A DNA stretch of 64,000 bases from a virus, in IMG/VR virus record IMGVR_UViG_3300032893_000012, positions 32,001-96,000 of that record. One strand, given 5' to 3'. A program made the position numbers and the translations under genes. Shown here in pieces: positions 7,401-42,549 of the stretch (the first letter of the stretch is position 1; every line of letters starts with the position of its first letter). The notes under the pieces were generated by a model. It made no database searches, had not been told where the DNA came from, and saw only the letters and a list, made by a program, of their open reading frames with translations.

Positions 7401-9854
7401 TCCAGGCAGGCCTGTTGGTCCAGTAATTCCGGTTGGTCCTGTGGGTCCCGTGCGTCCGGTGGCTCCGGTGTTCGAAGCCGTACCGGCGGGGCCGGTCGCG
7501 CCGGTTGGTCCCGTGCGTCCGGTCGCCCCCGTGTTCGCGGCGCTGCCGGCGGGCCCCGTGAGTCCTGTCGGTCCCGTGAACCCGGTGGGTCCCGTGACGC
7601 CGGAAGGGCCCGTGACAGTGCTTGGCGCGCCTGGAATCCCTTGCGAGCCGGTGGGCCCAGTCGTTCCGGTCGCGCCCGTGTTTGTCGCCGTGCCCGCAGG
7701 CCCGGTCGTGCCGGTTGGCCCTGTCGCTCCGGTATTGGTTGCGCTACCGGCGGGGCCAGTTGGGCCACTCGGGCCCGTCACGCCGGAGGGACCGGTCGCG
7801 CCGGTGTTTGTCGCGCTTCCCGCGGGCCCCGTAGATCCTGTGAACCCGGTAGGCCCAGTGCTACCGGTCGACCCTGTCGCTCCAGTGTTCGACGCAGTCC
7901 CCGCGGGTCCAGTCGGACCCGTCGCTCCCGTACGACCGGTCGCCCCCGTGTTCGTCGCGCTACCGGCGGGACCCGTCGCGCCAGTCGGTCCAGTATGCCC
8001 GGTAGTGCCCGTTGGACCCGTGACCGTGCTCGGTGCTCCGGGAGGGCCAACGGGCCCCGTACTTCCGGTCGCGCCGGTGTTCGAAGCGCTTCCCGGGGTG
8101 CCGGTTGGTCCAGTTGCACCGGTCGCGCCGCTTGCGCCAGAAGGACCCGTCGCTCCGGTATTCGTTGCGCTTCCAGGGACTCCGGTTGGTCCCGTGTAGC
8201 CGGTCGGTCCTGTCGCTCCGGTATTTGTCGCTGAACCAGGGACGCCGGTTGGTCCCGTCGCGCCTGTCGGTCCAGTCGTACCCGTCGCACCGGTGTTCGT
8301 TGCACTGCCGGCGGGGCCGGTTGCTCCGGTTGGACCTGTAGGTCCAGTGCGTCCGGTCGCGCCGGTGTTTGCTGCGCTGCCAGCAGGACCCGTTGCGCCA
8401 GTCTGTCCGGTTGGTCCTGTGCGTCCCGTAGATCCGGTTGAAGAAGCTCCAATGGGCCCAGTCGCGCCCGTGGAGCCTGTGAATCCAGTCGGACCTGTTT
8501 GACCCGTCGCTCCGGTGTTCGTCGCGCTGCCAGCGACGCCGGTAGGACCGGTGATGCCAGTGGGACCTGTTGGACCGGTAGCTCCGGTATTTGTCGCGCT
8601 TCCGGCTACGCCCGTCGGTCCAGTGAATCCAGTTGGACCGCTCGCACCAGTGGATCCAGTTGCACCAGTATTTGTTGCTGATCCGGCGGGTCCTGTTGCG
8701 CCCGTCGGGCCTGTTGGACCTGTTCTACCTGTCGCACCGGTGTTTGCGGCGATGCCTGCTGGACCGGTTGCACCGGTTCGTCCAGTTGGACCTGTCGCGC
8801 CTGTCGCTCCCGTGTTCGTGGCAGAGCCGGCGGTACCGGTCGGGCCTGTCGTACCTGTTGATCCGGTAGGACCGGTCGCTCCGGTATTGGTTGCACTTCC
8901 TGGAGCACCAGTCGCTCCGGTGGCACCAGTCGGACCGGTGGCGCCAGTGGCGCCTGTATTCGTTGCTGATCCGGGTGCACCGGTTGCGCCAGTTGGACCA
9001 GTTGAACCGGTCGCTCCTGTGGCTCCTGTGTTTGCTGCGGTTCCGGCGGGACCTGTTGCACCAGTGACTCCGGTCGGTCCTGTTCTTCCGGTCGCTCCGG
9101 TGTTGGATGCACTACCCGCCGGTCCAGTTGCACCGGTTTGTCCTGTTGGACCGGTTGTGCCGGTTGCCCCGGTGTTTGTTGCAGATCCAGCAGTACCGGT
9201 AGGACCAGTGAATCCCGTTGGTCCAGACGGACCTGTAGCACCGGTGTTTGTCGCAGATCCGGCGACACCGGTAGGACCCGTGAAACCAGTTGAACCTGTT
9301 GGTCCAGTTGCTCCTGTATTAGTTGCTGATCCGGCGGGACCCGTTGTTCCGGTTGCCCCAGTTGGGCCAGAGGGACCTGTGGCGCCTGTATTTGATGCGC
9401 TACCAGGAATTCCAGTTGCACCCGTTGGTCCGAGTGCGCCAGTTGGGCCAGTTATACCAGTAGGTCCAGTAGATCCAGTCGCTCCGGTGTTTACGGCTGT
9501 GCCCGCGGGTCCTGTAGCTCCAGTGCGTCCAGTGGGTCCCGTCGCGCCGGTATTCGTAGCCGATCCTGGAGCCCCAGTAGGACCAGTATTTCCGGTCGAT
9601 CCGGTTACACCTGTGGGCCCAGTAGCACCTGTGTTCGTTGCGGATCCAGCCGGACCAGTAGTGCCAGTGGGTCCAGTTTGTCCTGTTGCGCCAGTGTTCG
9701 TCGCAGTGCCGGGAGCTCCTGTGGGTCCGGTAGGTCCAGTTGGACCGGTTGCGCCGGTAACGCCGGACGCACCGGTTGCGCCGGTAACGCTCTTGTGCGC
9801 ATCGGGGTAGGTCTCCCCGTGGTAACGCCCGCGCCTACCGGTGATGTAACCCAT
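4410..9854 (-). CDS. Collagen-like fibre protein 1 (1814 aa) with beta-helix-like head
   Basis: Roughly 1200 aa of G-X-T triplets with periodic GSATNT interruptions, a small inserted globular domain, and a C-terminal head starting [14 protein letters not shown]. Confidence 0.9.
5840..9787 (-). repeat. Collagen (Gly-X-Thr)n coding repeat, fibre 1
   Basis: Degenerate 9-bp period, interrupted by a non-repeat domain at about 6130-6450. Confidence 0.9.
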
Positions 9855-9911
9855 ATCCGGAAACCTTTTTTATGTTTGAAGTCGTTCAAGGTCGCACAGG
9901 AGGCAAATGGA

Positions 9912-39556: not shown

Positions 39557-39672
39557 AACACCGCGACTAGTCAGGTACCGCATCGACCGTGATAGAGTGC
39601 TCCGGGCGGTCCGAAAATGCCCTTCCGAGTACCTTTACCTGAGAGGGCCCGTCCCAGTTTCGGACAGGTAGA

Positions 39673-42549
39673 ATGGCTCATGTAACAGGGCTAAAACGCC
39701 GCAGCCCTGAAACGTATGCTGAGCGGCCGCTCGCAGGTGGTGGCGGAACTGGGACAACGGGACCGACCGGGCCAACAGGGCCGACCGGTCCCTTCGGAAT
39801 CGGCACCGGTGCGACAGGGCCATCAGGAGTAACAGGACCGACAGGGTTCACGGGACCTATCGGTACCGGGCCAACAGGATCGACGGGACCGACCGGCGCG
39901 ATCGGACCGACGGGTACTATTTCCGGATCTGGGATGACTGGCGCTCCGGGCTCGACCGGTGCGACGGGTCCCACTGGATCCACTGGCAGTACCGGGTTTA
40001 CCGGACCAACGGGAGCGACGGGATCAACTGGGGCAGGAGGGACAGGCGCCACAGGCCCGACCGGCGCCGGCGTCACGGGCCCCTCTGGCGTGACGGGTTC
40101 GACCGGCCCAACTGGACTCACGGGACCGACGGGCGCTCCGAGCACCGTTACCGGGCCGAGTGGACCGACGGGCGCGACGGGTCCCGCGAGCAACGTCACG
40201 GGCCCAACAGGCTTCACTGGACCTACCGGAGCGCCCGGATCTGCAACGAATACTGGTGCCACCGGACCAACCGGGGCAACCGGATCGACCGGATCGACCG
40301 GCTCCACTGGTCCAACCGGGCCAACTGGAGCGCCAGGAGTAGCGGCCAACACCGGCGCTACGGGCCCGACGGGTGATGTTGGACCTACGGGAACGACTGG
40401 TTTTACTGGACCAACTGGTCCCGCCGGCAGTGCAACGAACACCGGTGCCACTGGCACCACCGGTGCCACTGGTCCTTCTGGTCCTACTGGGCCAACCGGG
40501 CCAACCGGTATTCCAGGCGCCGCAACGAACACTGGCGCGACCGGACCGAGCGGTGTCACAGGACCGACAGGACCCACTGGATTTACAGGGCCCACTGGAT
40601 TTACAGGACCAACCGGCTCTCCTGGAACGGCGACCAATACCGGAGCGACGGGGCCCTCGGGACCGACAGGATCTACCGGATCAACCGGCTTCACTGGACC
40701 GACTGGTTTCACCGGACCAACCGGCGCCGACGGAACCTCCACCAATACCGGCGCAACGGGGCCAACCGGATGGACCGGTCCTACTGGATGGACTGGCGCG
40801 ACGGGTCCGACGGGATTCACGGGTCCTGCCGGAAGCGCAACGAATACGGGGGCGACCGGTCCCACTGGACCAACCGGGTGGACGGGTTCGACGGGATTCA
40901 CCGGCCCTACCGGAGCGCCTGGATCTGCAACGAATACCGGATCGACAGGGCCAAGCGGCCCCACCGGATGGACGGGACCCACCGGTCCAACGGGACCAAC
41001 CGGTGTCCCGGGAAGTGCTGTAAATACGGGCGCTACCGGTCCAACCGGCTCGACGGGGCCCACTGGGGTGACCGGTTTTACCGGCCCGACCGGCGTCGCC
41101 GGAACGGCCACGAACACCGGCGCTACAGGGCCTACGGGACCATCCGGACCGACGGGACCAACCGGCGTTACCGGACCGACGGGCGCTCCTGGAAGCGCCG
41201 TCAACACCGGAGCTACAGGACCGACGGGGCCCACCGGGTGGACGGGTCCCACCGGATGGACGGGGCCAACCGGGACTCCCGGGAGCGCAACGAATACCGG
41301 CGCCACGGGGGCCACCGGTTTTTCTGGACCCACAGGACCCACTGGGCCGACAGGACCGACAGGCGTTCCGGGCAGTGCCGTCAACACCGGAGCTACAGGA
41401 CCGACAGGCTTCACCGGACCGACAGGTTTCACGGGACCAACTGGTCCAACCGGCATTCCAGGGGTTGCGGCAAATACCGGCGCGACAGGCCCCACCGGTT
41501 TCACTGGACCTACTGGATGGACAGGTCCCACCGGCATAACCGGACCGACAGGAATCCCAGGAAGCGCAACAAATACTGGCGCGACAGGACCAACCGGATC
41601 CACCGGACCGACCGGATTCACGGGATCGACCGGATCCACAGGTCCGACTGGGATCCCTGGTTCAGCAACGAACACAGGGGCGACTGGACCGACGGGACCA
41701 ACGGGGTGGACGGGTCCCACCGGATGGACAGGTCCGACTGGGGTCCCCGGGAGCGCAACTAACACCGGCGCGACAGGCCCCACGGGTTTCACCGGTTTCA
41801 CTGGGCCAACTGGATTCACTGGACCAACGGGTCCTGCCGGAACCGCTACGAACACCGGCGCGACAGGCCCGACTGGCTACACGGGCCCAACCGGATGGAC
41901 GGGACCTACCGGCTTCACCGGTCCGACAGGCATCGATGGTGCGGCGACGAACACGGGTGCGACGGGATCGACCGGACCGAGCGGGCCGACAGGATGGACA
42001 GGCCCTACTGGCTCGACCGGTCCGACGGGGACTGCCGGTAGCGCGACAAACACAGGCGCAACAGGTCCCACCGGCCCCACCGGTAGCGCAGGCACCGCAA
42101 CGAACACCGGGGCAACGGGACCGACTGGATCGGCTGGAGCAGGATCGACGGGGCCGACTGGGCCGACCGGCACTACCACTATTCCGTCCTTTCTTACATT
42201 CGCGACTGATGCATCAACCTCGACTAACGAGTTCTTGGGGCCCTATTCCACTTCGTTCTTCGGGACCGAAGCGGGAGCAACCCTAATCATAAGCGTCGCT
42301 GGAACGCTCAAGAACCTACGGTGCACACTTTCTACCGGCAACATCACGACGAGTTGCACATTTACCGTAAGAAAGAACGGTGTCAATCAAACGTTGGCTG
42401 CGACGGTGACGAATGGAACCCCAAGCGGTAGTGACACGACGCATACTGTTTCTGTCGCCATAGGCGACAAAATATCTGTTCAGGCGAGCGCTAATTCGAC
42501 CTTTGGCGGCGCTGTCATGTGGGTCACGATCGATCTGTCGATTCCGTGA
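39673..42549 (+). CDS. Collagen-like fibre protein 2 (958 aa)
   Basis: About 810 aa of G-X-T repeats with GSATNT interruptions, a ~120-aa beta-sandwich head, and N-terminal [15 protein letters not shown]. Confidence 0.9.
39745..42180 (+). repeat. Collagen (Gly-X-Thr)n coding repeat, fibre 2
   Basis: Degenerate 9-bp periodicity. Confidence 0.9.

Follow-up and report, generated by a model that had tools for sequence, protein, structure and literature searches.

The window, the whole stretch of DNA analysed here, covers 64,000 nucleotides (bases 32001-96000) of the 109,321-bp IMG/VR virus record IMGVR_UViG_3300032893_000012, which is rated complete by CheckV. It carries three open reading frames (ORFs) of 1814, 182 and 958 amino acids (aa) that begin at their ATG with the same peptide of 16 to 17 residues, called the tag in the following. 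The 1814-aa protein, fibre 1, is encoded on the minus strand (4410..9854) and has the tag as residues 1-17 (9804..9854, minus strand) in a class A variant, being the consensus plus one residue. The 182-aa protein (10642..11190, minus strand) has a class B variant as residues 1-16 (11143..11190, minus strand), and the 958-aa fibre 2 (39673..42549, plus strand), 25 kb away from the other two tagged genes, has a class B variant with a Y-A end as residues 1-16 (39673..39720, plus strand).

These ORFs are as described in an earlier note on this DNA, and the consensus derived there, written as a regular expression, matches at these three places only in the six frames of the whole record. We further built a leave-out profile hidden Markov model (HMM) from 37 tags of related viruses and none from this genome. 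Among 2,751 stop-to-stop segments, the three tag sites take ranks 1 to 3 with 25.8 bits (fibre 1), 17.3 bits and 14.0 bits (E values 9e-7, 5e-4 and 5e-3), followed by a next match of 7.0 bits, and the match begins at the start codon in all three proteins. The shared tag is thereby confirmed as real and not due to chance.

At least 40 same-strand ORFs within +/-10 kb of the relatives' 466-aa gene, a conserved virion gene described below, begin with the tag, and the alignment gives the clade consensus M-x-x-I-I-G-R-G-R-Y-A-x-E-T-Y-P. The tags of the window are divergent variants of this clade-wide consensus. The fibre 1 tag is a G-R-G-R-Y variant lengthened by one residue, and the 182-aa protein and fibre 2 have in common a K/R-rich S-P-E-(T/V)-Y variant, which is also found in the related loci L018 and L019. 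The scan of related contigs with a motif HMM, suggested in the earlier note as a check, finds the tag in 24 of 27 full related records, with 1 to 11 copies per genome. Nearly all of the roughly 100 matches begin at model position 1 or 2, and some copies lie far from the main cluster, as is also the case in this window.

The search of a 30-column profile against a library of 1.84 billion representative proteins yields 223 protein clusters with the tag at an E value of at most 1e-3 (best 1e-9), and all 150 library matches listed start at residue 1 or 2. In the 133 library matches in the canonical register, Gly6 and Tyr15 are conserved to 100% and Pro16 to 99%, followed by Gly8, Arg9, Ala11 and Glu13 with 93-96%. 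The positions 17-20 after the tag vary, with Pro, Ser, Ala and Gly being frequent.

The location of the sites at the 5' end of genes would also suit a nucleic-acid element, such as a translational or regulatory RNA. However, tag copies differ by synonymous codons while the peptide is kept, indicating selection on the peptide and not on RNA, and no DNA-level match links the three starts. A chance resemblance is contradicted by E values of 1e-9 to 1e-4 against the 1.84 billion proteins and by the leave-out ranking, which puts the three sites first. An RNA element or chance therefore deserves next to no credence and is effectively refuted.

The bodies behind the tag are diverse. Grouping by BLAST divides the 43 tagged proteins from the window and the related loci into at least 25 body groups and 140 library representatives of at least 100 aa into 67 body groups. 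The library bodies are G/A/T/V/S-rich with few charged residues and have no transmembrane-like segments. The only Pfam families recognised on them are Collagen (9 proteins) and two ice-binding-type beta-solenoid families, and the 43 proteins from the loci likewise give Collagen and ice-binding-type matches only, so none of the tagged proteins scanned has a recognisable domain of an enzyme or a replication protein. The earlier note had named loss of the motif in homologues, and an equal occurrence on non-structural proteins, as findings that would speak against its proposal; the motif is conserved in the 24 records mentioned, and no recognisable domains of the non-structural kind stand behind it.

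The two tagged fibres are the only genuinely collagen-like ORFs in the genome. In fibre 1, which matches the Pfam Collagen family, the tag is followed by G-X-Y repeats from residue 25 to about 1128, a globular insert at about 1129-1235 (window 6150-6470), a second G-X-Y block up to residue 1340 and a C-terminal domain of about 470 aa (window 4413-5834). Fibre 2 is composed of the tag, G-X-Y repeats at residues 24-809 and a head of about 140 aa (window 42115-42546). The earlier note had proposed one short module on different stalks and heads, with stalks of about 1200, 0 and 800 aa. The bodies of the fibres and of the 182-aa protein do differ, and the fibre 2 head shows no similarity to the profile of the 182-aa family. 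With regard to the stalk lengths, the 182-aa protein is indeed without a stalk, whereas the G-X-Y runs amount to 1,044 residues in fibre 1, in two blocks with the insert between them, and to 693 residues in fibre 2. The repeats are interrupted periodically by a triplet lacking Gly, 39 times in fibre 1 and 21 times in fibre 2. A collagen triple helix rises by about 0.29 nm per residue, which would give lengths of about 300 nm and 200 nm for runs that are triple-helical throughout.

Parts of these proteins recur in other combinations. The insert of fibre 1 (about 100 aa) recurs in the loci L029 and L015 as the terminal head of short tagged proteins, and the C-terminal domain of fibre 1 stands directly behind the tag in L006:19114. 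The window also encodes an untagged 479-aa paralogue of this C-terminal domain (2465..3904, minus strand), whose orthologue in a close relative is tagged. The 479-aa protein shares 32% identity with residues 1345-1666 of fibre 1 and 39% with the tagged body of L006:19114, showing that the same body exists with and without the tag. In a relative whose 466-aa protein is 89% identical, the tagged repertoire is otherwise different; such a fast turnover is expected for host-recognition proteins.

The residue at the Y position is threonine in 235 fibre 1 triplets and 169 fibre 2 triplets, and such G-X-Thr collagens are likely O-glycosylated. Fibre 2 adjoins a minus-strand cluster of GH16, GT2, HtrL-like and methyltransferase genes (43649-54332), which plausibly modifies the Thr-rich collagen stalks. 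The likely glycosylation and this large glycosyltransferase and methyltransferase cluster would suit a tag that serves as a maturation handle, recognised by a chaperone, a trimerisation factor or a virus-encoded glycosylation machinery and not by the capsid. We consider this quite unlikely, with the collagen region lacking in most tagged proteins, the conservation of the tag across the clade equal to that of the capsid-block proteins, and the small conserved neighbours of the tagged genes not strictly co-occurring with the tag.

The third tagged protein, with 182 aa, belongs to a family found in 16 of the 27 related records, sometimes in two to four copies, and in many relatives its gene comes right after the LysM gene. 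The members carry their own tag variants, which are followed by a conserved F-A-R-N-F-A segment. The protein is 39% identical to the C-terminal part of L019:18963, a tagged protein of 272 aa with a collagen stalk. A word-indexed protein search finds just two close homologues, and no relatives are encoded in the pattern-matched stretches of viral contigs.

The AlphaFold2 model of the 182-aa protein, calculated from an alignment of 18 sequences, reaches a mean predicted local distance difference test (pLDDT) of 79.4 and a predicted template modelling score of 0.72. Residues 1-24 stay below a pLDDT of 50, and residues 29-178 fold into an all-beta domain. Foldseek matches the model to 4-1BBL, the BclA C-terminal domain, BxpB/ExsFA, EDA and CD40L with E values from 2e-6 to 2e-4. 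A wide structural search with VIA-align against about 48,000 solved chains gives the Pgp3 C-terminal domain (Z score 12.4), the BclA C-terminal domain (12.3), F-BclA (12.2), EDA-A1 (12.1), ExsFA (11.3), a chain of the cyanophage A4 portal-tail complex (9k09_A, 11.1) and C1q (10.8). According to the model, the domain is a TNF/C1q/BclA-like jelly roll. TNF/C1q jelly rolls trimerise, and proteins with a collagen stalk usually have one as their head. The disordered residues 1-24 together with this predicted fold make the 182-aa protein, in the model, a stalkless knob on a flexible tail.

Both minus-strand tagged genes follow immediately downstream of a block of genes whose synteny is kept in 31 related viral contigs. 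The block starts with a RadC-like protein, followed by proteins of 129 aa, 560 aa (Pro-rich) and 350 aa, a transglutaminase-fold protein, an Arg-rich 576-aa protein, the 466-, 223-, 295- and 238-aa proteins and a LysM/PG_binding protein. The gene for the transglutaminase/cysteine-protease-fold protein (18898-20529, minus strand) is split here by an intein with Hint and LAGLIDADG domains at a G-G-D|C-D-E site; in several relatives it is intein-free and encodes about 220 aa.

The presence of this protein in the virion block bears on whether the tag stays on the mature proteins. The tag could be a targeting leader: it would guide the proteins to a scaffold or to a particle under assembly and would then be cut off by a protease of the virion, such as the transglutaminase/cysteine-protease-fold protein, leaving the attachment to another part of the protein. 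The capsid-targeting sequence of T4 and the trimmed N-terminus of BclA are parallels. A short, strictly N-terminal peptide followed by a Gly-rich linker would fit such a role, as would the conservation of the transglutaminase-fold protein in the block and the BclA N-terminal domain, part of which takes part in attachment (PMC10470788). On the other hand, no conserved cleavage motif follows the Tyr-Pro, with positions 17-20 being variable, the stalkless knob has no other possible anchor, and external fibres need a permanent one. A cleaved leader is thus unlikely, although it is the weightiest of the alternatives, followed in order by the maturation handle, an export signal and the RNA-level element.

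A second link between the tagged genes and the virion genes is a tandem CGTTTGAC-type motif, found upstream of fibre 2 (39525..39554, plus strand), in the leader of the core/capsid operon (18870-18888, minus strand) and upstream of structural-looking plus-strand genes that start at 25955 (25861-25879, plus strand). The motif has 4 matches, compared to 0.13 expected from shuffling, and is a candidate for a shared late-gene operator or promoter element. Its occurrence in front of both fibre 2 and the capsid operon suggests co-regulation. The plus-strand genes at 25955-27721 encode other small proteins with a second near-N-terminal motif of the G-R-x-V-x-G-F-G-x-G type, which we also see near 15-17 kb in L021, L023, L024 and L026, and which stands at the very N-terminus in several relatives.

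This genomic setting is also relevant for a possible non-classical export or cell-surface signal. The tagged proteins would then bypass the virion and reach the envelope of the host, where they might act, for instance, in superinfection exclusion or adhesion. In favour of such a signal, the tag is basic and located at the N-terminus, and BclA-like and TNF-like fibres are also found on bacterial surfaces. However, the tag has no hydrophobic core and none of the Sec, Tat or lipobox features, and the tagged proteins show no transmembrane-like segment. The genes lie inside the virion module and share the leader motif with the capsid operon, and each tag match for which the DNA was inspected sits on a contig of this virus lineage. 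An export function is therefore very unlikely.

If the tag is instead a docking peptide, the virion block offers its possible partners. The 466-aa protein (15495..16895, minus strand), a conserved virion protein and capsid candidate whose true start is probably at residue 22, the 223-aa protein (14653..15324, minus strand; about 200 aa in relatives) and the 295-aa protein (13763..14650, minus strand) are the only proteins that are found in all 31 loci with a conservation like that of the tag, having identities of 44-89%, 37-82% and 34-78%, respectively. By elimination and conservation, we infer that one of these three is the candidate socket.

The 163-aa protein, which the earlier note had included among the partners, has no homologue in any of the 31 related loci and hence cannot be the universal socket. 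Between the tagged genes lie two conserved small proteins, both 37-74% identical in most relatives: a soluble 79-aa protein (9912..10151, minus strand), present in 24 of the 27 records, and one of 90 aa that has a CxxC motif and two hydrophobic segments (10167..10439, minus strand). The 79-aa protein is rejected as an obligate partner, being absent from the tag-rich genome G006 and present in the tag-less G013. The plus-strand ORF at 10069-10614, antisense to these two genes, is spurious. The TNF-like 182-aa family is rejected as an obligate socket, being itself tagged and missing from 11 of the 27 records.

Profile searches against PDB sequences give no match for the 466-, 223-, 295- and 182-aa families. 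The AlphaFold2 model of the 466-aa protein is poor (pLDDT 52); it has no Foldseek match at an E value of at most 1e-3 and no usable match in the ESM Atlas, and the wide structural search gives only weak beta-sandwich or jelly-roll-type matches with Z scores of up to 5.3. For the 223-aa protein, the Atlas suggested a PM2 P2-like assignment (P2_N/P2_C, score 0.78), which was not confirmed by the family searches of the genome.

The genome encodes replication, recombination, methylation and glycosylation functions according to Pfam and PHROG scans of 127 ORFs, with no head, portal, terminase or tail families among the top families. Targeted six-frame searches of the genome for Terminase_6N, TerL_ATPase, FtsK_SpoIIIE and Phage_portal also give no matches, although very divergent versions could escape them. 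The genome sizes in the lineage range from 60 to 125 kb. The genome encodes LysM and peptidoglycan-binding domains, a sign of a bacterial host. A scan of genome collections gives matches limited to short contigs of metagenome-assembled genomes, from Binatia and Polyangiaceae, and a megablast search of the phage collection finds no DNA near-identical to window 11000-24000.

Taken together, we think it probable, though well short of certain, that the tag is a virion address and putative docking tag for swappable trimeric surface proteins, as judged from the sequence comparisons and the knob model. The tag would form an N-terminal tail that is extended and basic, ends in Tyr-Pro and leads into a hinge rich in Pro and Gly, and the three tails of a trimer would engage one conserved site of the particle. 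Collagen-stalked fibres, stalkless TNF-like knobs and beta-solenoid adhesins could all be fixed in this way, so that any body fused behind the tag would be displayed and the repertoire would turn over by module exchange. The strict N-terminal position, the peptide-level selection, the fibre-type bodies, the module shuffling and the disordered tail on a trimer-type knob support docking, as does the position of the tagged genes directly downstream of the conserved virion block. We infer that the tag binds a capsid protein, persists on the mature protein and sits on the shell. With up to 11 tagged proteins per genome, facet attachment via trimeric capsomers is as possible as attachment at the five-fold vertex, where the earlier note had placed its putative socket.

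Several points weigh against such docking. The complete 117-kb relative G013 (the record of L021) has no tag match at all, and the lineage of L034 and L035, the most divergent sub-lineage with a 466-aa protein of 44-47% identity, mostly uses a different N-terminal segment. Up to 11 tagged proteins is a large number if there is just one type of site, and the tag could be lost once targeting is complete. A trimer-type fold is predicted for the 182-aa knob family, while the C-terminal parts of both fibres are only putative trimers. The capsid site itself is an assumption, given the low pLDDT of the 466-aa model and its low Z scores.

As for these deviating relatives themselves, G013 contains the capsid block and the 79-aa gene, and it has a collagen-containing ORF of 989 aa whose beginning is unrelated in sequence. 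In L034 (16596-20000) and L035 (13923-20058), fibre-like and collagen ORFs share another N-terminal segment of about 20 aa, acidic and hydrophobic, followed by poly-Gly, which may be an alternative lineage-specific tag.

A more far-reaching version of the docking reading is doubtful, yet it can be put forward tentatively. In this version, large bacterial viruses (60-125 kb) of an undescribed family, probably with jelly-roll capsids and no tail, would all use the tag as their connector. Each particle would carry up to about 11 different trimeric host-recognition proteins on a single plug of 16 residues, and some lineages would have alternative plugs of their own. A covalent or near-irreversible lock of the bond, as in BclA-BxpB, is conceivable, perhaps made by the conserved transglutaminase-fold enzyme. 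In that case, nature would have produced a programmable system for display on capsids that has no relative by sequence in any known virus.

The tag can serve as a sequence-only marker for the likely surface and host-recognition proteome of a lineage whose virion proteins are otherwise unmatched, marking at least 223 protein clusters and at least 67 body types. It makes testable the question of how a large virus in which no tail genes can be recognised carries many exchangeable fibres, and the search for the socket can start from a 16-residue peptide and three conserved candidate partners. If the binding is true, the tag could be used as a display handle. Beyond the divergent tag variants, this window contributes the prediction of a TNF-like fold for the conserved stalkless knob and the count across the library with its strictly N-terminal position. 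It also excludes three candidates for the partner (the 163-aa protein, the 79-aa protein and the TNF-like family).

The principle of a short docking peptide is already known, while the peptide and the lineage are new to the literature searched, in which we found no published description of either. Phages of the K1E/K1-5/SP6-like type and Klebsiella phages of the KP32, KP34, Menlow and PhiK64-1 groups have group-specific N-terminal docking peptides of 7-11 aa or somewhat longer, by which several different receptor-binding proteins with exchangeable heads, up to about 11 per virion, are attached to one virus (PMC6872550), and such peptides have been validated experimentally (PMC13352976). The common feature is a short conserved N-terminal peptide on several receptor-binding-type proteins of one virus. 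In contrast, the phage peptides dock on a T4gp10-like branching domain of the tail adaptor or primary receptor-binding protein; the corresponding family T4_gp9_10 (Pfam ID PF07880) has no match in this genome at an E value of at most 1 in a family-profile search, which does not extend to remote or structural homologues. The peptide sequences are unrelated, and the bodies are depolymerase beta-helices there and collagen fibres and predicted TNF-like knobs here.

The adenovirus fibre tail, to which the earlier note had likened the tag, is also an extended basic N-terminal tail with Tyr-Pro on fibres of variable shaft length, and its FNPVYPY motif binds in the cleft between penton-base monomers (PMC8156859). 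The tag ends in E-T-Y-P after a G-R-G-R-Y core and shares only the Tyr-Pro dipeptide with FNPVYPY. Furthermore, the shaft here is a G-X-Y collagen and not a triple beta-spiral, the host is predicted to be bacterial, and Adeno_Penton_B (Pfam ID PF01686) has no match in a family-profile search of the genome. We take the resemblance as an analogy and not as a membership. The solution by a short docking peptide, as used by tailed phages and adenovirus, would have arisen or persisted in a third, very different virion context.

In the tailless bacterial virus PRD1/PR772, the vertex spike P5 has a base for attachment at its N-terminus, then a collagen-like triple helix of short length, and a knob at its C-terminus that is trimeric (PMC6750898). 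It attaches, however, via a jelly-roll domain of 124 residues in the penton base that is paralogous to P31, compared to 16-17 residues and a linker here, which are disordered in the knob model, and there is one such protein per virus in a 15 kb genome.

BclA of the Bacillus exosporium shares with the tagged proteins an N-terminal attachment peptide, G-X-Thr collagen repeats and a TNF/C1q-like head, a head of this type being predicted here for the 182-aa knob family, including the collagen-stalked L019:18963. A short peptide of the BclA N-terminal domain is enough to form a very stable complex with the trimeric anchor BxpB (PMC10470788). BclA is located on a bacterial spore surface and its attachment peptide differs in sequence; an untagged BxpB-like protein was not found here, the only TNF-like protein being tagged. 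The system described here appears to belong to none of these four. By analogy, its architecture is most like that of BclA, and its logic is most like that of the phage docking peptides.

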